A DNA stretch of 64,000 nucleotides from Oscillospiraceae bacterium (lineage in GTDB: Bacteria; Bacillota; Clostridia; Oscillospirales; SIG627). A program made the position numbers and the translations under genes. Within the stretch, counting starts at the first letter, position 1. Each line of letters starts with the position of its first letter. The DNA is taken from the NCBI GenBank assembly GCA_015063985.1, contig SVTC01000003.1:5162-69161 (forward strand), in the 5' to 3' direction. Below, piece after piece: positions 1 to 17,259 of this stretch. The notes below the pieces were generated by a model. It did no database searches, was not told the DNA's origin, and worked only from the letters and a program-made list of their open reading frames with translations.

Positions 1-933
1 AGGCTTTTTGCCGGTGCGTATGCAATCCACAAAGTGCATAAGCTCGTGCTCGGTATGCTTGGAGCTCTCCCCGTCTCTCTTCCATACCAGGGATACGTTG
101 CCCTCGGAGGCGTATTCTCCGGGCTTATGCTCGGCGTGCTTATTATAAAGCTTAAGCTCTCCGGTCTTATGGTCGTATTCCAAAAGACCCTGCTCTGTAT
201 GCACCTGGAAGTTATAGCCCATTCTGGTGCCTCTTGCACCCCAGGTAGCACCGTGATAGCCGATAGCTCCGTTCTTGAACTTCAATATAACAGAGCTTGT
301 GCCCTCCTTAAGAAGCCAGGGGGTACCCACTCTTGTACCTAAGTGAGAGCCGCTTACGGGCTCGCCCAGGAACCACAAAAGCAGGTCTATATAGTGGCAT
401 CCGTGGCTGAAAAGCTGACCTCCGCCAAGCCTTGCGGTGGCAGTCCATGTACCCTCCTTGGCAACGGTGAGCTGCTCGGTCCACACGGACATCTGTATTA
501 TCTTTCCAAACTCTCCGCTGTCAAGAAGCTCCTTCAGTTTAACGATTCCCGGCCAATAGCGCACGGGGTATGCGCACATCAATACCACCTGCTCCTCCTC
601 GCAGATCTCAATAAGTCTGAGACATTCCTCCTCGGAGTTGCAAAGAGGCTTTTCCATCAAGATGTGCTTTTTCTGCCTTGCAAAGAATACTCCGCACTCA
701 AAGTGAAGATCGTGAGGCAAAACGACAAGCACCGCATCCACGTAGTCAGCCATTGTCTTATAGTCGGTGGTGACGTATGGATCATCCAGCACGCTTGCCA
801 CCTCTCTGGCTCTCTCGATCTCAATATCGCAGACCGCGGTTATCTCCACGTCCGCCTTGCATTGATTTATTCCCTGGGCATGAGTCTTCATCATACCGCC
901 GCATCCGATAAGTCCGAGTCTTATTCTTTCCAT
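1..933 (-). CDS. Gfo/Idh/MocA family NAD(P)-dependent oxidoreductase (3' end outside window)
   Basis: My own minus-strand translation from the ATG at 933-931 gives MERIRLGLIGCGGMMKTHAQGINQCKADVEI..., a Rossmann GxGxxG N-terminus. The frame is open to the window edge. Track ORFs 34-342 and 343-936 (+) are its antisense shadows. Confidence 0.8.
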   Translation of the reverse strand, partial: MERIRLGLIGCGGMMKTHAQGINQCKADVEITAVCDIEIERAREVASVLDDPYVTTDYKTMADYVDAVLVVLPHDLHFECGVFFARQKKHILMEKPLCNSEEECLRLIEICEEEQVVLMCAYPVRYWPGIVKLKELLDSGEFGKIIQMSVWTEQLTVAKEGTWTATARLGGGQLFSHGCHYIDLLLWFLGEPVSGSHLGTRVGTPWLLKEGTSSVILKFKNGAIGYHGATWGARGTRMGYNFQVHTEQGLLEYDHKTGELKLYNKHAEHKPGEYASEGNVSLVWKRDGESSKHTEHELMHFVDCIRTGKKP

Positions 934-1057: not shown

Positions 1058-1912
1058 GTGAACCGCTATGTTAAGATTCCCCTTCAAAAGCTGATCGACG
1101 TAAGCTCCATCGTTACCGCCCACGTTTACGATCTCAGGGGAAAGATGGTAAAGGGCGAGAGGCACGATTTCCCGGAGATATTTTACGTTATGGAGGGAAA
1201 CGAGCATTGCATTACCGAGCTCGGAGACTGCTATCTCAGCGAGGGTCAGCTGATAATATACGGAGCCAACGTATACCACGGTGTTCCCACCCCCACACAA
1301 AGAGGAAACTGCATTGCGGGAATAATATCCTTTGTAAGCGAAAGCCCTGCACTTGATGCCATCTGCAATAAGGTAATAACTCTTACCGCCGCCCAAAAGG
1401 AAAGCTACCTTGAGCTCCTTGCCAAAGCCTGCAATAGCTTTGAATCGGTAAAGGATCCCGTGCTTAAGGGAATGAAGCCCAGAGAAAACGCCGATCCCGC
1501 ATCCCTGCAAAACATAAAGAACGGTCTGGAGCTCTTTTTGCTGGACATCCTTCATAATCCCGATCCTCTGACCAACCGCCACCACTTTCTGAAAATGCGA
1601 TTCGACGAGGTCTACCGTTATTTTTCAGCAAACATTCATAGGCAGATAAGCTCCGAGCAAGCAGCAAAGGAGCTGAACATGAGTGTGTTTTTCTTAAGAG
1701 AGCTGATAAAAAAGAAGAAAAATTGCGGTATAACCGAGTATTTTATATCTCTTAAGCTTGATAAGGCAAAGGAGCTTTTTCAAAGCACACCGATGAACGT
1801 AACGGAGGTATCTGCCGCTTTGGGCTTTTCCTCCATACACTACTTTTCCCGTCTTTTCAAAAAGAAAACGGGACTCTCTCCCCTGCAATACATAAAAACA
1901 AAGGGCAAATAA
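1058..1912 (+). CDS. AraC family transcriptional regulator (cupin-like sensor + HTH)
   Basis: The C-terminus ...VSAALGFSSIHYFSRLFKKKTGLSPLQY is the canonical AraC HTH. GTG start with an AAAGGAG RBS 7 nt upstream. Confidence 0.85.
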   Translation: MNRYVKIPLQKLIDVSSIVTAHVYDLRGKMVKGERHDFPEIFYVMEGNEHCITELGDCYLSEGQLIIYGANVYHGVPTPTQRGNCIAGIISFVSESPALDAICNKVITLTAAQKESYLELLAKACNSFESVKDPVLKGMKPRENADPASLQNIKNGLELFLLDILHNPDPLTNRHHFLKMRFDEVYRYFSANIHRQISSEQAAKELNMSVFFLRELIKKKKNCGITEYFISLKLDKAKELFQSTPMNVTEVSAALGFSSIHYFSRLFKKKTGLSPLQYIKTKGK

Positions 1913-1916
1913 AAAT

Positions 1917-1944
1917 ATCCGCCTTCGAAAAAACGAAGGCGGAT
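1917..1944. terminator. Bidirectional intrinsic terminator between convergent genes
   Basis: Stem atccgccttcg / cgaaggcggat with an A6 loop, flanked by A-run and T-run. Confidence 0.7.
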
Positions 1945-2221: not shown

Positions 2222-4093
2222 TTATTTCTCCTTTTTATTTTGTTTTTCTCTTATAGCCGAGAGAATATATCTTCCTCCGACCTCTCCCGATCTGCCAAAG
2301 TTTGAAACGTATTTTTCCCTGATCTCGAGGATCTTATCACTGTATTGGTCTGCCCGCTGCAAAAGCAAGGCTATTCTTTCGCTCAGACCATCCATAGCCG
2401 CGGGATCTACCCTTATACCGACCCTGTCTCTGAGAGAAAACTCCAAAGGCTCGATCCCAAGCTCGGTATAGCGGGGATTGTTTATCTTTGGCTTAGTATC
2501 CACAAAAACCGCGGGCTTAAGGGTAACGAAGGAAAATTCATAAGCCGTGCCCGACCAATCGGTAATAAGAACGTCACTGTCAAATATGGATGAATTACCC
2601 GAAAAATCAAGCTCGAAGCTAAGGTCGTCCCCAACCTTATCGGAATACCTTGCCACAATGGCATCCATTCTCGGGCCAAAGCGCTTTACGTATTCGGGAT
2701 GCGGTCTGATCACAAGCTGAAAGCCCTTGCCGTAAAGCTCACTGATTATCTTATCCAAGCAGCTGTCAAGGATATTATCGGGCTGCCAGGACGGAGCGAT
2801 AAGCACCTTGGGCTTTTCTCTTTGGGGCTTTTCGAGAGCAAGATAGCTTTCATAAAGCTGCTCGAGCTGACCGTAGCCTGCCGCAATAAGCTTCTTTTCG
2901 GGAAGTGAATAAAGCTTTTCAGCGGCACGGATCTCATCAAACTGAAACTCGCCCACACAAAAGACGGTATCGTAATGATCCAAGGCTCCCGTATTAAGCA
3001 CCATGTGTGTGCTCAGGGGATAATGGAACATATAGATGTACTCAATATCCTTGCGGACGTAGCTGCGCTTATAATGGAAATTATCAAGATCGGGGCAGGT
3101 CATGACCACCACGTCCGCATCCATTTTCATCATTAGTGTAATAAGCCTTGTGGGTCCGATGTAATAGGGCTTTATGCGGGGCTCGGACTCTGCCAATTTA
3201 AAGATCATATCCTTGGGATCGTTGGTAACGTAATGGATAATAACGTTGGATCTTTTCAGCAAAAACTCAATAACGTCCTTGAAGTATTTATAAAATCCGC
3301 TTTTTTCGGAATAGAAGACCAAATGCTTATTGGCAACGGAGAAAAAGCGCTTATAATCTGCCTTTTCTCTCTTTTTATCCTCGGGACTGACTCCCTTGGA
3401 CAGACCACCCATAGCCTCGAGCTCCTTTTTGCTTCTTTCCAGCTCGGCGTAATCAACGCGCTTTTTCGGATCGAGAACAAGGTTCAACACAAGCTGCTGA
3501 AGGATACTGAAAAGATTTGAGAATATCCAGTAGATCCCTACTCCGAGGCTTACGAAAAAGCCAAGAAAAAGGCTTATAAAAATGCTTATGCCGTTGGTCA
3601 TCCACTGCTCCGAGCTGCCCTGCTCCCTTTGAAGGGGATTGAGCTTATTCTGGCTTAGTCCCAACGCCAATGCGGCAAGGCCTGCGGCAAAGGGCATAAG
3701 AACGCTCAGTCCTCCCGCTTGCGAGGGAATGAGGTTAAGGGGAGTGTCTACCTCTCCCATAACACTCTTGACCGCGCCTATTACCCCGATAAGCATAACA
3801 AGCTGGATTATCATGGGAACGGTGCTTGCAAGAGGATGATAATGCTCCTTTTTATAAAGCCTTTGGGTTTCTTCGGCAATAGTGTCCTTATCGCCGTAAT
3901 ACTTTATCTTCAGAGAATTGAGCTTCGGCGTGATCCTGAGCATGGATATTGCATTCTTCTGCACCCACAGACCTACCGGAAAGAGAATTATTTTTGTAAG
4001 CAAGGTAAAAGCGATTATTGCAAGGGCATAGTTATTGATAAAGCCGTAGCAAAGCTGCAAAAGCGCAGCCAAGGGCGCAACTATTATATCCAA
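2222..4093 (-). CDS. Fusion protein: N-terminal YidC/Oxa1-family insertase domain + C-terminal CDP-glycerol glycerophosphotransferase (TagB/TagF-like) domain
   Basis: Residues ~1-230 carry YidC hallmarks (AIIAFTLLTKIILFPV, LYKKEHYHPLAS, GVGIYWIFSNLFSILQQ). Residues ~260-623 resemble the Glyphos_transf family (APSWQPDN, RPHPEY, DVLITDWSGTAYEF). Confidence 0.7.
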   Translation of the reverse strand: MDIIVAPLAALLQLCYGFINNYALAIIAFTLLTKIILFPVGLWVQKNAISMLRITPKLNSLKIKYYGDKDTIAEETQRLYKKEHYHPLASTVPMIIQLVMLIGVIGAVKSVMGEVDTPLNLIPSQAGGLSVLMPFAAGLAALALGLSQNKLNPLQREQGSSEQWMTNGISIFISLFLGFFVSLGVGIYWIFSNLFSILQQLVLNLVLDPKKRVDYAELERSKKELEAMGGLSKGVSPEDKKREKADYKRFFSVANKHLVFYSEKSGFYKYFKDVIEFLLKRSNVIIHYVTNDPKDMIFKLAESEPRIKPYYIGPTRLITLMMKMDADVVVMTCPDLDNFHYKRSYVRKDIEYIYMFHYPLSTHMVLNTGALDHYDTVFCVGEFQFDEIRAAEKLYSLPEKKLIAAGYGQLEQLYESYLALEKPQREKPKVLIAPSWQPDNILDSCLDKIISELYGKGFQLVIRPHPEYVKRFGPRMDAIVARYSDKVGDDLSFELDFSGNSSIFDSDVLITDWSGTAYEFSFVTLKPAVFVDTKPKINNPRYTELGIEPLEFSLRDRVGIRVDPAAMDGLSERIALLLQRADQYSDKILEIREKYVSNFGRSGEVGGRYILSAIREKQNKKEK

Positions 4094-10759: not shown

Positions 10760-12658
10760 ATGATAAAGCTTGATTTTGAAAATATTCACGAAAGCCTTAA
10801 GGCTCCCGCTCTGGAGGCATTGGAGCTTCTTGACATCGAGGAGGGCGAGCACGGTATACCCGTAATCGCAGAAAACAAGGGCGACGGGCTGGAAGTATAT
10901 TTTTCCAACAACGGCGCTCTTGTTATTGAATACAGCCGACTTTGCGAATTCTTCCGCGGGCTTTCCCACGTAAAGAAAATAGTTAACGACGGTATTCCCG
11001 TAAGGGAAAAGGCACACTTTGAGTGGCTGACCTATATGGCGGACGTTTCAAGAGGCGGAGTTCACAACGTAAAAAGCGTCAAGCTTTTGATAAAATATCT
11101 CGCTCTTATGGGATATAACGATCTTATGCTCTACACCGAGGATACCTATGAGCTGCCCAAATACCCATACTTCGGTCACCAGAGAGGAAAATATACCCTC
11201 GCCGAATTAAGAGAGCTTGTGGAATACGCAGAATTATTCGGTGTCACACTCTCGCCCTGCATCCAGACACTGGGTCATCTTTTCTCCGCTCTCAAGTGGC
11301 CCTGCTTTTCAAACATTAAGGACACTTCGGACGTGCTCTACGTGGGCAAAGAAGAGACCTATGAATTTCTCGACTATATGTTCGAGACCCTTTGCAGCGT
11401 ATTCAAGACCCGCCGCTTCAACATAGGTATGGACGAGGCACACTCTCTCGGCACAGGCGCAAGGCTTGAAAAGGAGGGACACGTAAGCCGCGGCAAGCTT
11501 ATGGAGATCCACCTGAAAAGAGTCGCCGAGCTTTGCAAAAAGCACGGTATCAAGCCTCTTATCTGGAGCGATATGTTCTTCAGACCCTACGCCGACGATA
11601 TCTACTATTCAAAGGACGTGGTAATTCCGCAAAGCGCCATAGACTCCGTTCCCGAGGGCTTTACCCCGGTCTACTGGGACTACTACAATTTCGACAGAGA
11701 CGAGGAATCCAAGGCCATATTTGACAATATGATGGCTCAGCATCTGCGCTTTAAAGGCCCCATCGGCTTTGCGGGCTGCACCTGGAGATATCTGGGCTTT
11801 GCCCCCAACAACGCCTTCAGCCTTATTTCAAGCAAATACCATGCGGATTCCTGCCTTGAGCACGGCATAAGGGATATTACCGTCACCTCCTGGAGCAACA
11901 ACGGCTGTGAGGCAAGTATGTTCTCCGCCTTCCCCGCAATGCTTCTCTATGCACAAAAGCTATATACCGGCTGCAGAGGCGAAACAGACGTTTCGGGTAT
12001 GCTCTACGACATTTTCGGAGTAAGTCTTGAGGATTTTATTCTTCTGGATCAGCCCAACAGAGTTCCCGATGCTCCCGGAATAGAGGTAAGCGCAGGCAGA
12101 AACCCCTGCAAATGGCTCTTATACAACGACTGTCTCTGCGGAAAAATGGACAGACACATCTCCACGGAATACGCTCCCTTCTACGCCGAGCTCAGTGAAA
12201 AGCTATATGCAAAAAAGGACTTAAAGCGCTTCGGCTACGTTTTTGAGACCCTGGGCGCTCTTTGTAAGGTCCTTGCTACGAAGGCAACACTGTCCGTAGA
12301 GCTTAGAAACGCCTACCTTTCGAAGGATCTTAAACGCCTAAAGGAGGTCTCGGATTCCATAACCCCGATGATAGAGGATCTGGACGTCTTTACGGAAGTC
12401 TACAGAAGACAATGGTTTAAAGAGAACAAGCTCTTCGGATACGAGTCCCCGGAAATGCGCTTCGGCGCCATAAGACAAAGAGCTCTGGGCACTCAAAAGA
12501 CCGTCGAGGCATACTTAAAGGGCGAGCTTGATTCCATCGAGCCGCTGGAGGAGGCGGTCTTATATTCCGATTGCAGACCCGACGACTCCCCCAGAAACAA
12601 GGTTGCAACAGTGGAAAACTACTTTGACTGTGTTCCCGTCACCTTTTCTCTGAGATAA
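10760..12658 (+). CDS. Glycoside hydrolase family 20 beta-N-acetylhexosaminidase-like protein, paralog 1
   Basis: FNIGMDEAH matches the GH20 catalytic (H/N)xGxDE signature within a TIM-barrel-like core. No signal peptide. RBS is ACAGGAGAAA. Confidence 0.75.
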   Translation: MIKLDFENIHESLKAPALEALELLDIEEGEHGIPVIAENKGDGLEVYFSNNGALVIEYSRLCEFFRGLSHVKKIVNDGIPVREKAHFEWLTYMADVSRGGVHNVKSVKLLIKYLALMGYNDLMLYTEDTYELPKYPYFGHQRGKYTLAELRELVEYAELFGVTLSPCIQTLGHLFSALKWPCFSNIKDTSDVLYVGKEETYEFLDYMFETLCSVFKTRRFNIGMDEAHSLGTGARLEKEGHVSRGKLMEIHLKRVAELCKKHGIKPLIWSDMFFRPYADDIYYSKDVVIPQSAIDSVPEGFTPVYWDYYNFDRDEESKAIFDNMMAQHLRFKGPIGFAGCTWRYLGFAPNNAFSLISSKYHADSCLEHGIRDITVTSWSNNGCEASMFSAFPAMLLYAQKLYTGCRGETDVSGMLYDIFGVSLEDFILLDQPNRVPDAPGIEVSAGRNPCKWLLYNDCLCGKMDRHISTEYAPFYAELSEKLYAKKDLKRFGYVFETLGALCKVLATKATLSVELRNAYLSKDLKRLKEVSDSITPMIEDLDVFTEVYRRQWFKENKLFGYESPEMRFGAIRQRALGTQKTVEAYLKGELDSIEPLEEAVLYSDCRPDDSPRNKVATVENYFDCVPVTFSLR

Positions 12659-12705: not shown

Positions 12706-12734
12706 TTGACATTGACATTGCTTTGGGATATACT
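12706..12734 (+). promoter_or_regulatory. Candidate sigma-A promoter for GH20 copies 2-3
   Basis: TTGACA (a duplicated TTGACATTGACA), 17-nt spacer, TATACT. Confidence 0.5.
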
Positions 12735-12767
12735 AAGCTCATCATCCCCACTACCACAGGAGGAAAT

Positions 12768-14663
12768 ATGATAAAGCTCGATCTGAAAAACCTCCCCGAA
12801 GATCTCAGATCCTCGGCCCAGGAAGCATTGGAGCTTCTTGACATCGAGGTGTGCGATAATGCCACCCCTCTTATAGCCAAAAGCTGCAGCGACGGCTTGG
12901 AGGTATATTTTGACAATGACGCCATAGTCATAAAATACAGCCATCTTTGCGAGTTTTTCCGCGGGCTTTACAAAATAAAAGCTCTTGTCAGAAACGGTAC
13001 TCCGGTTAAGGAAAAGGCTCATTTTGACTGGCTGAGCTATATGGCGGACGTTTCAAGAGGCGGAGTATTTAATTTAAAAACGGCAAAGCTTTTAATTAAG
13101 TACCTTGCTCTTATGGGATATAACGATCTTATGCTCTATATGGAGGACGTATACGAGCTTCCCAAATACCCCTACTTCGGTCACCACAGAGGAAGATACA
13201 CCCTCGATGAATTAAGAGAGCTGGTGGAATACGGCGAAAGATTCGGCGTGACCCTCACCCCCTGCATCCAGACTCTCGGACATCTGCGCTCCATGCTCCG
13301 TTGGCCCTGCTTTGCAAGCATCAGGGACACTGACGACGTGCTCTACGTCGGCAAGGATGAGACCTACGAATTTCTGGATTACGTATTCGAGACTCTTTGC
13401 AGTGTATTCAAGACCCGCCGCTTCAACATAGGTATGGACGAGGCACATTCCCTCGGAACAGGCGCAAGGCTTGAAAAGGAGGGCTTCGTTCCAAAGAGCG
13501 AGCTGATGAGGATCCACCTAAAAAGAATAGCCGAGCTTTGCAAAAAGCACGGCATCAAGCCGCTTATCTGGAGCGATATGTTCTTCAGGCCCCTCAATCC
13601 CGACAACGAGTATTACAGCGCAGATCTGCAGGTGCCCGATGAAGTTATAAACAGTGTACCCGAGGACTTCACATTGGTTTATTGGGAATACTATAACTGC
13701 GATATGACCGATGAATTAAAGGCCATATTCGACAATATGATGGCTCAGCATCTCAGATTCAACAACCCCACAGCCTATGCGGGCTGTACCTGGAGATGGG
13801 TGGGCTTTGCTCCGAAAAACGCCTTCAGTATGCTCACAAGCAATTATCACGTGAACGGCTGTCTTGACAACAATATCCGTGATATTACCATGACCTCCTG
13901 GAGCAACGACGGCAGTGAGTCAAGTCATTTCTCCGCGATTCCCGCGGTTATGCTTTATGCGGAAAAGCTTTATACCGGCTCAAGGGAAAGACTTGATATT
14001 TCCGATGCGCTTTTTGATATTTTCGGCTTGACCTTGGACGACTACCTGCTTTTGGACGAGCCCAACCGAGTTCCGGGCTCTCCTCCCACAAGGCTCTCAC
14101 AAGGTAAGAATCCCTGCAAGAATCTCTTTTATCAGGACTGTCTTTGCGGAAAAATGGATGCGCACTCCGATCCCTCCTACAAGGCTTTTTACGCAGAGCT
14201 CAGCAAAAAGCTGTATGCGAAAAAGGACGTAAAACGCTTCGGTTATCTTTTTGAGGTTCTGGGCGCCCTTTGCCAAGTACTCAAGACCAAGGCAACTCTA
14301 TCACTTGATCTGAGAAAGGCATATCTTGAAAACGACCGCCAAAGGCTTGACGAGCTTTGCTGGGAAATCGACACGATGATAGCCGACCTGGACGTATTCA
14401 CAGAGCTCTTCAGAAAGCAGTGGCTCAAGGAATACAAAATGTGGGGCTATGAAAATATAGAGATGCGCTTCGGCTCCGTAAAGGAACGAGCCATCGGCAC
14501 CAAAAAGACGGTGCGGGAATATCTCAACGGAGAGCTGGAGGCAATAGAGCCGCTGGAGGACGAGGTGCTCTACTTTGATTGCAGACCCGCAGACTCCGAA
14601 AAAAACAAGATAGCATCCATAGGACACTATCTGCAATGCACACCGATAAATTATTTACTTTGA
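12768..14663 (+). CDS. GH20 beta-N-acetylhexosaminidase-like protein, paralog 2
   Basis: Collinear with paralog 1 and has the same NIGMDEAH motif. The start is set at MIKLDL (ATG 12768) behind a CAGGAGGAAAT RBS rather than the track start at 12723. Confidence 0.75.
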   Translation: MIKLDLKNLPEDLRSSAQEALELLDIEVCDNATPLIAKSCSDGLEVYFDNDAIVIKYSHLCEFFRGLYKIKALVRNGTPVKEKAHFDWLSYMADVSRGGVFNLKTAKLLIKYLALMGYNDLMLYMEDVYELPKYPYFGHHRGRYTLDELRELVEYGERFGVTLTPCIQTLGHLRSMLRWPCFASIRDTDDVLYVGKDETYEFLDYVFETLCSVFKTRRFNIGMDEAHSLGTGARLEKEGFVPKSELMRIHLKRIAELCKKHGIKPLIWSDMFFRPLNPDNEYYSADLQVPDEVINSVPEDFTLVYWEYYNCDMTDELKAIFDNMMAQHLRFNNPTAYAGCTWRWVGFAPKNAFSMLTSNYHVNGCLDNNIRDITMTSWSNDGSESSHFSAIPAVMLYAEKLYTGSRERLDISDALFDIFGLTLDDYLLLDEPNRVPGSPPTRLSQGKNPCKNLFYQDCLCGKMDAHSDPSYKAFYAELSKKLYAKKDVKRFGYLFEVLGALCQVLKTKATLSLDLRKAYLENDRQRLDELCWEIDTMIADLDVFTELFRKQWLKEYKMWGYENIEMRFGSVKERAIGTKKTVREYLNGELEAIEPLEDEVLYFDCRPADSEKNKIASIGHYLQCTPINYLL

Positions 14664-14677
14664 TAAGGAGAGAAAAA

Positions 14678-16579
14678 ATGATAAAGCTTGATTTTGAAAA
14701 TCTTCCCGAAAGCCTTAAGGCACCCGCTCTGGAGGCATTGGAGCTTCTTGACATCGAGGAGGGGGAGCACGGCATACCGGTGATAGCGGAAAATAAAGGC
14801 GACGGCCTTGAGGTATATTTTTCCAACAACGGCGCTCTTGTTATTGAATACAGCCGTCTTTGCGAGTTTTTCCGCGGACTTTCCCACGTAAAGAAAATAG
14901 TTAACGACGGCATTCCCGTAAAGGAAAAGGCGAATTTTGAGTGGCTGACCTATATGGCTGACGTTTCAAGAAACGGAGTTATGAATCTCGATACGGCCAA
15001 GCTTATGATAAGATACCTTGCTCTTATGGGCTACAACGATCTTATGCTCTACACAGAGGATACCTACGAGCTTCCCAAATACCCTTATTTCGGTCACCAG
15101 AGAGGTAAATACACCTTGGAGGAGATCAAGGAGCTTATCAGCTACGGCGAAGACTTCGGCATAACCCTTTCTCCCTGCGTCCAGACTCTCGGTCATTTCC
15201 GTATGCCCCTTATCTGGCCCTGCTTTTCCGACATCAAGGACAGCTCCGAGGTGCTCTACGTTGGCAAGGAGGAGACCTACGAATTTCTGGATCATATGTT
15301 CGAGACCCTCTGCAGCGTATATAAGACCAGGCGCTTTAACATCGGAATGGACGAGGCGCATACCCTCGGAAAGGGCAGAAGGCTGGAAAAGGAGGGCTAC
15401 GTCAAGAAAAGCGAGCTGATGCAGATCCACCTCAAAAGAGTTGCCGAGCTCTGCAAAAAGCACGGCATCAAGCCACTTATCTGGAGCGATATGTTCTTCA
15501 GACCCCATACTCCCCACAACGGCTACTACAGTGCAGACGTAAGCGTGCCCGACGAGGTGATAAAGGGAGTCCCCGAGGACTTCACTCTGGTATACTGGGA
15601 TTATTACAACTGCGATATGAATCCCGATTCAAAATCCAAATTCGACCATATGATAAGCGAGCACAAGCGCTTCAACAATCCCATAGCCTTTGCAGGCGGA
15701 AGCTGGAAGTGGACGGGCTACGCTCCCAACAACGCCTTCAGCCTCAACTCAAGCAACTACCACGTAAACTCCTGCCTTGAAAACGGTATCAGAGACATCA
15801 CGGTCACCGCCTGGGGCGACGACGGCGCCGAGGCAAGCACCTTCAGCGCTCTGCCCGCAATGCTTCTCTATGCCGAAAAGCTATACAAGGGCGACACGTC
15901 AGATCACGATATATCCGATGCATTTTACGATATCTTCGGCGTGAAGCTGGAGGACTTTATGCTTCTCGATCTTCCCAACGCAGTTCCCGATTGCCCCGAG
16001 CTTAAATTCAACTGCAGCAAGAATCCTTCAAAATACCTTCTCTACAACGACTGTCTCTGCGGAAGGCTGGATGCTCACATCTCTTTCTCCTACAGAGCCT
16101 ACTACGCCGACACTGCAAGGCTGCTTGAAAAATACGTTGACCTTCCCCGTTTCGGTTACCTGTTCAAGACCCTGGCATCTCTTTGCAGGGTCCTCACAAA
16201 CAAAGCCACTCTATCGATAGATCTGAGAAGCGCATATCTTGAAAAGGACAATGCAAGGCTTAAGGCTCTGTGCGAAACCGTTGATACTCTTGTCAGCGAT
16301 ATAGACGCCTTTATAAACGATCTCAGAGAGCAGTGGTACAGCGAAAACAAGCTCTTTGGCTTCGAGACCCTTGAAATGCGACTCGGCTCCGTAAGACAGA
16401 GAGCCATCGGCGCAAGGATCACCGTTGAAAAGTATCTTAGCGGCAAGCTGAAAAAAATAGAGCCCCTCGAGGAGGCTGTGCTCTATTCGGATTGCAGAGA
16501 GGCCGACAGCGACAAGAGCAAGGTGTTATCCATTTCCATATACAACCAGTGCGTTCCCGTTACCTCACTTCAGGATTAA
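14678..16579 (+). CDS. GH20 beta-N-acetylhexosaminidase-like protein, paralog 3
   Basis: Collinear with paralogs 1 and 2. The start is set at MIKLDF (ATG 14678) behind an AAGGAGAGAAAAA RBS, 14 nt after the stop of paralog 2. Confidence 0.75.
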   Translation: MIKLDFENLPESLKAPALEALELLDIEEGEHGIPVIAENKGDGLEVYFSNNGALVIEYSRLCEFFRGLSHVKKIVNDGIPVKEKANFEWLTYMADVSRNGVMNLDTAKLMIRYLALMGYNDLMLYTEDTYELPKYPYFGHQRGKYTLEEIKELISYGEDFGITLSPCVQTLGHFRMPLIWPCFSDIKDSSEVLYVGKEETYEFLDHMFETLCSVYKTRRFNIGMDEAHTLGKGRRLEKEGYVKKSELMQIHLKRVAELCKKHGIKPLIWSDMFFRPHTPHNGYYSADVSVPDEVIKGVPEDFTLVYWDYYNCDMNPDSKSKFDHMISEHKRFNNPIAFAGGSWKWTGYAPNNAFSLNSSNYHVNSCLENGIRDITVTAWGDDGAEASTFSALPAMLLYAEKLYKGDTSDHDISDAFYDIFGVKLEDFMLLDLPNAVPDCPELKFNCSKNPSKYLLYNDCLCGRLDAHISFSYRAYYADTARLLEKYVDLPRFGYLFKTLASLCRVLTNKATLSIDLRSAYLEKDNARLKALCETVDTLVSDIDAFINDLREQWYSENKLFGFETLEMRLGSVRQRAIGARITVEKYLSGKLKKIEPLEEAVLYSDCREADSDKSKVLSISIYNQCVPVTSLQD

Positions 16580-16588
16580 GGGATATCA

Positions 16589-16622
16589 ATGCCCCGAGAG
16601 TATAGCCTCGGGGCATTATTTT
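16589..16622 (+). terminator. Intrinsic terminator after GH20 copy 3
   Basis: Stem atgccccgag / ctcggggcat followed by TATTTT. Confidence 0.7.
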
Positions 16623-16624
16623 GA

Positions 16625-16862
16625 GCATAACAAAAGCCGCAATGCCAAAAAGCATTGCGGCGATTTTTTTGACTCCCCCACCGAGCCGTGTGTCCAAGGA
16701 AGAGACCCTGCGCATGCAAGGGCGGTACCCGCTCTCTTGTTACAGTGCTCCCAACTTCCATCCGCAGAAAACAGACGGGAGGTCTGCAGCCACTTCGAGA
16801 ATAAGGGTTCCAATTAATCTTTGTGGGTCCACGCATCGGACTTCACGTGCTAAGCAGGTTAA
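16625..16862 (-). ncRNA. Candidate structured non-coding RNA or long structured 3'UTR (class unresolved; 6S-like closed rod is one possibility)
   Basis: GC-rich gap with no credible ORF or RBS. On the minus strand, the 5' arm (16825-16852) and 3' arm (16684-16708) pair as AGC/GCU, CGUG/CACG, GUCC/GGAC and GACCC/GGGUC, separated by internal loops. A terminator hairpin at 16636-16661 is followed by UUUUGUU. Confidence 0.4.
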
Positions 16863-16868
16863 AAAAGC

Positions 16869-17159
16869 TTATTCCTCGTCGTAATCGTACTCGCTCATAA
16901 GCTCGTTGTCGAAAGCATCGGCAACTCTGTCAAACTCATCGTCATCATCGATGGTGATAAGGATCTCATCATCATTTTCATCGATAACGGACTTGAGAAT
17001 GATGTACTCATCCTCGTCGCTCTCGGCGTCTACCAAAGCAAAATATGTGTTGCCGTCAAGCTCAAGGGTTCCGATAATATCAAAATTTTTCTCAACGCCA
17101 TCCTCATCGGTAAGGGTAACGCTTTCGGTCTCAAATTCAAATTCGTTGTTCTCAGCCAT
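16869..17159 (-). CDS. DUF1292 family small acidic protein
   Basis: 96 aa and very acidic. The central ...FDIIGTLELDGNTYFALVDAESDEDEYIILK... pattern is typical of DUF1292 (YrzB-like). RBS is AGGAGGAT. Confidence 0.7.
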   Translation of the reverse strand: MAENNEFEFETESVTLTDEDGVEKNFDIIGTLELDGNTYFALVDAESDEDEYIILKSVIDENDDEILITIDDDDEFDRVADAFDNELMSEYDYDEE

Positions 17160-17259
17160 TTTATAATCCTCCTAACTGTTTTTGTCTCACCGTATATATT
17201 CTACAATGAAAAAGGCTTTAAGTCAATAGTTTTTTTATCTTTTGTCCGCGCTAAGGATA

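Follow-up and report, generated by a model that had tools for sequence, protein, structure and literature searches.

In the window, by which we mean the whole 64,000-nt stretch of DNA analyzed, a GH20 gene (14579-16579, plus strand) and a DUF1292 gene (16869-17159, minus strand) converge on a gap of 289 bp. This gap has a GC content of 0.54 to 0.56, as against 0.39 to 0.50 in the adjacent stretches, so that the GC-rich gap of about 290 bp between convergent genes described in the initial annotation is confirmed in size and, with a modest enrichment, in composition. On the minus strand, DUF1292 comes after DUF1934, murI, and ddl. For comparison, 80 loci were taken from species-representative genomes using the DUF1292 protein as an anchor, and all of them stem from metagenome-assembled uncultured Clostridia, Eubacteriales, or Oscillospiraceae, mostly of the ruminant gut. 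Among these 80 related loci, the DUF1934/murI/ddl context upstream is common to the two closest relatives of the window only; the ddl-murI-DUF1934-DUF1292 unit that had been proposed is hence a local arrangement and not a conserved unit. The convergent GH20 neighbor downstream is found at a single one of the 80 (L006). A DUF1292 protein identical (100%) to that of the window, labeled "MAG: Ruminococcaceae bacterium," was present among the best 120 matches listed. The features of the region are as follows, in the direction of the minus strand, where R1 is the clade-specific covariance model introduced below.

17198-17226, minus strand: promoter-like TTGACT-17-TAGAAT located 5' of DUF1292, detected by motif scan and recurring among relatives
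16869-17159, minus strand: DUF1292 (YrzB-family) gene, 96 aa, Pfam PF06949, 57 bits
16884-16912, minus strand: weak promoter-like TCGACA-17-TACGAT within the 3' end of the DUF1292 coding sequence, detected by motif scan
16673-16861, minus strand: 6S RNA (ssrS) body, a 189-nt rod, matched by R1 over its full length with 153.6 to 153.7 bits; Rfam alignment 16671-16863
16837-16858, minus strand: 5' strand of the closing stem, CCUGCUUAGCACGUGAAGUCCG, pairing with 16677-16696
16825-16830, minus strand: 5' strand of the bubble-proximal helix, GGACCC, pairing with 16703-16708 and predicted to template the initial nucleotides of the product RNA (pRNA)
16812-16824, minus strand: 5' side of the central bubble, 13 nt, ACAAAGAUUAAUU, unpaired in the RNAalifold and R1 structures
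16758-16778, minus strand: apical hairpin, variable in length and sequence among orthologues, with 4 of 4 pairs covarying
16709-16723, minus strand: 3' side of the central bubble, 15 nt, GCCCUUGCAUGCGCA, for which an alternative hairpin with the GGG at 16706-16708 is possible
16703-16708, minus strand: 3' strand of the bubble-proximal helix, GGGUCU, also the switch element for the 3'-bubble hairpin
16677-16696, minus strand: 3' strand of the closing stem, UGGACACACGGCUCGGUGGG, with covariation in orthologues
16628-16661, minus strand: bidirectional intrinsic terminator, GCCGCAAUGC-UUUUU-GGCAUUGCGGC and then UUUUGUUA

Three tandem GH20 paralogues (10760-12658, 12723-14663, and 14579-16579, plus strand), each with Glyco_H_20C_C, converge on the terminator of the 6S gene. 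As listed, the second and third of these ORFs overlap by 85 bp, and the real start of the third gene is probably located downstream of the listed TTG.

At default settings, Rfam gave zero matches anywhere in the window, whereas a permissive scan of positions 16500-16950 placed a match to the 6S family, RF00013, on the minus strand at 16671-16863. This match has a score of 32.0 bits (E = 7.2e-5, from a local search) and covers model positions 1-187, i.e., the full length. The comparison with Rfam thus came out empty at the default setting and positive for 6S at a score that is below the gathering score of this family (46.4). The lower score of the window copy is due to a 5-nt deletion beside the bubble and to a longer apical loop. 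R1, the covariance model built from 37 sequences of this clade, produced exactly one full-length match in the window (153.7 bits) and in each of 77 of the 80 loci, with scores of 72 to 191 bits for these 77 orthologues. At two of the three R1-negative loci the contigs stop short of the site, and L058 (Candidatus Flemingiibacterium sp., DUF1292 at 891-1151) is truly devoid of the element, being the only locus with ample downstream sequence but no 6S; it may harbor a paralogous DUF1292 copy or represent a lineage whose DUF1292 and 6S genes have moved apart.

The orthologues provide the link to the known family. Twenty-two of the 77 exceed the RF00013 gathering score (47.7 to 65.1 bits), at coordinates identical to those of the R1 matches. 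The same was observed for 9 of 20 sampled metagenomic relatives that are more distant (48.0 to 69.1 bits), these 20 corresponding to the lower-scoring, more divergent R1 matches. There is therefore a continuum from 6S RNAs at the curated threshold to the window copy, and the homology of the latter to 6S is established in a transitive manner, via the clade model R1 and the Rfam-passing orthologues. The 6S-like RNA suggested in the initial annotation has consequently been traced to a full-length match of a known family: the element is an additional member of this family, its homology to 6S is demonstrated, and we are highly confident that the region is the 6S RNA (ssrS) gene of an uncultured Ruminococcaceae/Oscillospiraceae-type gut bacterium. 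The synteny-based rescue of 6S RNAs that score below threshold is standard practice (PMC8414754). The rod comprises 189 nt in the window and 180 to 233 nt in the R1 matches of the orthologues, as measured between predicted ends. Canonical 6S RNAs are 160 to 200 nt in length and form a rod with a central bubble and a hairpin facing the 5' bubble strand, and the synthesis of a product RNA begins within the bubble (PMC8414754, PMC10578484, PMC10117727).

With filters off, the next-best R1 match in the window scored 11.3 bits, and no second 6S copy was found there. Other candidates from the permissive scan were rejected: at 16584-16666, sub-threshold matches to ncr1175 (33.3 bits, threshold 60) and to Srn266 correspond to two back-to-back terminator hairpins, each serving one of the convergent transcription units, and are likely spurious; HCV_5BSL1, Spot_42, and the remaining sub-threshold Rfam matches were considered noise.

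The region is kept on the same strand just 3' of DUF1292 at 73 loci according to a single-sequence search and at 77 according to a profile search. The RNA was placed on the minus strand on the basis of the Rfam match and of the 78 full-length R1 matches, which are co-oriented with DUF1292; the only R1 echo on the opposite strand was detected at L007 (20.7 bits). When the single sequence was folded, the minimum free energy of the minus strand was -88.1 kcal/mol, which is weakly better than that of shuffled sequences (z = -2.36), and the plus strand has a z-score of -3.83. An RNA on the plus strand was nevertheless rejected, since the strand is set by the Rfam match and the R1 co-orientation; the good score of the plus-strand fold is explained by the self-complementarity that a rod has on the opposite strand too and by the inclusion of the terminators.

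RNAalifold applied to an unbiased MAFFT alignment recovered the rod, with compensatory changes in 20 of its 39 pairs. When a 46-pair structure was evaluated on the MAFFT alignment A2, 93.4% of the cells were paired, compared to 43 to 50% once the 3' partners had been slid, and changes on both sides occurred in 22 pairs, compared to 6 to 14; none of 500 shuffles attained the observed values. Alignment A3, containing 77 distinct sequences, was fitted to the R1 model and hence leans towards the structure; here, 93.7% of the cells were paired (42 to 52% when slid) and 29 of the 46 pairs were compensatory (16 to 20 when slid). The closing stem (helix 1) has 18 pairs in A2, of which 8 show compensatory changes, and all 6 pairs of its inner segment covary in A3. 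Covariation thus backs the closing stem, the large central bubble, and the apical stem, which together are the canonical 6S rod, and conservation of the element is documented in 77 of the 80 related genomes. The outer interrupted stem noted initially (AGC/GCU, CGUG/CACG, GUCC/GGAC, and GACCC/GGGUC) is present in the minus-strand minimum free energy structure and is supported by covariation in the orthologues. The inner hairpins CAGAC/GUCUG and GCGG/CCGC did not hold up: they can pair in the window but are not conserved (62% of cells paired; covariation score 0.038, compared to 0.034 in shuffles), and their bases form part of the long-range rod.

Conservation is highest around the bubble. The flanking motifs AAACCYAC and GGGUUU show a conservation of 100% or close to it, and A34, C35, C36, A38, and C39 are invariant. 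Within them, the 5' strand of the bubble-proximal helix has the family consensus AAACCY, including the invariant A34, C35, and C36, and the 3' strand has the consensus GGGUUU, in which GGGU is invariant and the next two positions are U in 99% of cases; the window has G33-C158 in place of the A-U pair of the family. The hairpin on the 3' side of the bubble is 91% paired and contains one covarying pair (UA 20 / CG 13). Its GGG is shared with the bubble-proximal helix, which results in competing pairings, and blocking the template strand in silico yields computed folds that contain this hairpin. Such a rearrangement is known to free the polymerase following product-RNA synthesis. The competition has been described likewise for canonical 6S RNAs (PMC8414754, PMC10578484).

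From just the Rfam-model alignment and conservation, the invariant C at 16823 is predicted to be the start site of the product RNA (pRNA). This residue, C39, is one position off the column of the Rfam alignment that we assign to U44 of E. coli 6S RNA. The predicted pRNA would begin with 5'-GUGGGUCCAC, complementary to 16823-16832, and extend toward 16838. 6S RNA is a near-universal small RNA; it imitates an open promoter and keeps RNA polymerase sequestered. By homology with characterized 6S RNAs, the rod described here would likewise imitate an open promoter and would bind and sequester the housekeeping sigma-A RNA polymerase holoenzyme. Upon a nutrient upshift, the polymerase would use the 5' bubble strand as a template, starting pRNA synthesis at C16823 and reading into the invariant ACC (16828-16826). 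The short product RNAs would displace the GGGU strand (16705-16708), which would then pair with the CCC of the 3' bubble (16720-16722), and this rearrangement would lead to the collapse of the bubble and the release of the polymerase.

The manner in which this RNA is likely produced is suggested by its position. A motif of the form TTGAC[AGT]-17-TA[ACG]AAT precedes DUF1292 at 75 of 77 loci, and at 72 of those 75 it matches at least 10 of 12 positions, a level reached by 4% of shuffles. The same trend, although weaker, is apparent in the divergent metagenomic set. A dedicated 6S promoter is not conserved: the motif scan found a consensus-like site directly before 6S at about 10 of 78 loci, mostly one motif within the DUF1292 coding sequence. 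The weak promoter-like site within the DUF1292 gene of the window recurs at only about 6 of 78 loci, where it lies inside a conserved peptide motif; this site (16912-16884) may be an alternative source of a 6S precursor. The distance from the DUF1292 stop codon to the 6S body is 7 nt in the window, with no terminator between, and 25 nt or less at most loci. Downstream of the RNA, the terminator hairpin at 16636-16661 with its U-tract that had been noted previously was recovered and is bidirectional, and an equivalent terminator-like hairpin with a U-tract follows 6S at 76 of 78 loci, its sequence being unconserved. A second hairpin at about 16590-16616, absent from the terminator-scan listing, was read from the sequence as the terminator of GH20.

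Because of the 7-nt gap, the lack of a terminator between the two genes, the lack of a conserved promoter of its own, and the presence of a near-consensus promoter motif 5' of DUF1292, we infer that 6S is probably made as the 3' part of a DUF1292 transcript that starts from the promoter at 17226-17198 and ends at the terminator at 16661-16636. Promoter, DUF1292, 6S, and terminator would accordingly form one unit, and RNases would cut the 5' end of 6S out of the DUF1292-6S transcript. The maturation of 6S RNAs out of longer precursors has been reported for E. coli, B. subtilis, and the B. cereus group (PMC10578484, PMC7726162). The alternative raised in the initial annotation, namely an RNA derived from the 3'UTR of the DUF1292 gene, is compatible with a 6S RNA; its position fits, and co-transcription is the arrangement proposed here.

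Several relatives contain promoter-like sites at a fixed distance before 6S. L037 (~3380-3410) has TTGTAA-17-TATACT with an upstream TG before 6S, and L047, L042, L045, and L030 have a promoter-like -10 element (TATAAT/TATACT) about 17 to 18 nt before the CCUGC start of 6S. The gaps between DUF1292 and 6S are longer in these relatives (L037 etc.), and, as far as such motifs can indicate, the mode of 6S expression may vary between lineages.

Other explanations of the conserved region need to be weighed against a 6S gene. The sequence does contain overlapping ORFs of 51 to 87 aa, among them one of 86 aa (minus strand, 16576-16836) and one of 87 aa (plus strand, 16621-16884), and a small protein could in principle be encoded by either of them. 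However, in the 78 orthologous regions compared, the longest ORF is anywhere between 23 and 87 aa in length and lies now on one strand, now on the other: 37 regions reach 60 aa, 21 on the strand of the RNA and 16 on the opposite one. Furthermore, the substitutions track base-pair compensation and not codon positions, indels are located in loops and have lengths other than multiples of three, and no ribosome-binding site was seen in the initial annotation. Given this lack of conservation in length and strand, protein coding was rejected and retains hardly any probability. A long terminator or insulator between the convergent genes, without a separate RNA, would account for the two terminator hairpins at 16590-16661, but the 189-nt rod is far better conserved than the terminators, whose sequences differ by locus, and it persists although a convergent GH20 gene is present at 1 of the 80 loci only (L006). 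We consider this explanation very improbable.

A third explanation is closer to the arrangement proposed above. The region could be a structured 3'UTR, or an sRNA derived from the 3'UTR, of the DUF1292 mRNA that resembles 6S in shape only and has a role unrelated to polymerase, for example as an mRNA-stabilizing element or as a base-pairing regulator. Its location 7 nt past the stop codon, with neither an intervening terminator nor a conserved promoter of its own, would be expected in that case, and the window copy does score below the Rfam threshold. On the other hand, the orthologues and the more distant relatives that exceed the curated 6S threshold argue against a mere likeness in shape, as does the fact that covariation has kept the entire 6S architecture, including the bubble and the 3'-bubble hairpin; moreover, an origin from a 3'UTR and a 6S identity can coexist. 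An RNA of this kind that lacks a 6S function is therefore unlikely, if somewhat less so than the terminator or the small protein, and the 6S gene is retained as the identity of the region.

Clear links emerge between the occurrence of 6S and that of DUF1292. In the protein-anchored set, 6S is adjacent to and co-oriented with DUF1292, following it at 77 of the 80 genome loci. A second route made use of the RNA only: a DNA pattern derived from the apical region brought up 120 metagenome stretches, and R1 matches are present in 99 of these (97 over the full model length and 2 clipped by the contig end). At 86 of the 88 loci found in this manner that have enough upstream sequence, a DUF1292 homologue is located directly upstream on the same strand. 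These metagenomic homologues share 31 to 74% identity, nearly all of them less than 60%, with the best-matching DUF1292 of the genome loci. The linkage thus holds whichever starting point is used (77 of 80 loci via the protein, 86 of 88 via the RNA), and it outlives the turnover of the flanking genes. In the literature searched, no paper mentioning both 6S RNA and DUF1292 was found. A bolder reading is that DUF1292 and 6S are a two-gene module that is obligate throughout a broad clade of gut Clostridia and whose linkage persists because the protein works with 6S or RNA polymerase; we regard this as speculative and rather unlikely. In such a module, a single strong promoter would drive the synthesis of a small acidic YrzB-family protein and then of 6S, matured from the 3'UTR, and the DUF1292 protein may act in the maturation, loading, or release of 6S. 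The functional coupling of the protein to 6S is purely conjectural; if the reading were true, it would offer the first functional lead for the DUF1292 family.

Other structured RNAs were noted in the vicinity of the 6S locus of several relatives. Gut-1 RNA (RF01706) adjoins it with scores above the gathering score, none being present in the window. The sites are located at 3521-3597 (plus strand) in L004, at 1870-1940 (plus strand) and 235-305 (minus strand) in L022, at 3438-3510 (minus strand) in L026, at 2767-2837 (minus strand) in L029, and at 3135-3208 (minus strand) in L034. They directly follow 6S or occupy the gap that separates it from DUF1292, and both orientations occur. In L026, L027, L031, L033, L034, L036, and L041, an S10-Clostridia ribosomal-protein leader (RF03136) was found on the opposite strand, some 2.6 kb upstream of DUF1292. 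In this subclade, the DUF1292-6S pair adjoins a ribosomal protein operon and not ddl-murI.

The element shares a number of features with 6S/SsrS RNAs of RF00013, such as B. subtilis 6S-1 (bsrA) and Clostridioides difficile 6S, namely, a length of about 190 nt, a closing stem, a central bubble, and an apical stem. It also resembles them in the hairpin facing the 5' bubble strand, in the terminator that follows the RNA (PMC8414754, PMC10578484, PMC10117727), and in a conserved pyrimidine in the 5' bubble as the likely start of the pRNA, which is predicted in the present case. Its genomic setting is different from that of the 6S genes of Lactobacillales, which are usually flanked by rarA and uspA (PMC8414754), whereas here 6S is located behind DUF1292. 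A longer transcript matured by RNases, as proposed here, has parallels in E. coli ssrS-ygfA and in the tandem ssrSA-ssrSB of the B. cereus group (PMC10578484, PMC7726162). In E. coli, however, 6S is promoter proximal and upstream of a protein gene, whereas here it would be the 3' part, and the partner in the B. cereus group is another 6S RNA, whereas it is a protein-coding gene here. The literature searched yielded no example of a 6S RNA that makes up the 3' part of a transcript and is preceded by a protein-coding gene. A further RNA to be considered is Ms1, which binds core polymerase and is confined to Actinobacteria. Like the element described here, Ms1 is rod-like and binds polymerase (a property that is predicted in our case), and it has often been located by synteny (PMC9130861). 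Unlike the relatives of the element, which pass the 6S model, Ms1 was not matched.

6S RNA is a global transcription regulator, and its gene deserves annotation in the abundant uncultured Clostridia of the rumen and gut. With the present Rfam model and its threshold, the window copy and about 70% of the orthologues (55 of 77) escape detection, and the addition of this clade to the Rfam seed alignment would cure such omissions. The 6S family itself is already known, and what is modestly novel is the widely conserved DUF1292-6S arrangement. This tight and widespread arrangement behind what is probably a common strong promoter is a small new observation that hints at the mode of 6S expression in this clade and that may bear on the function of the uncharacterized DUF1292 (YrzB) family.
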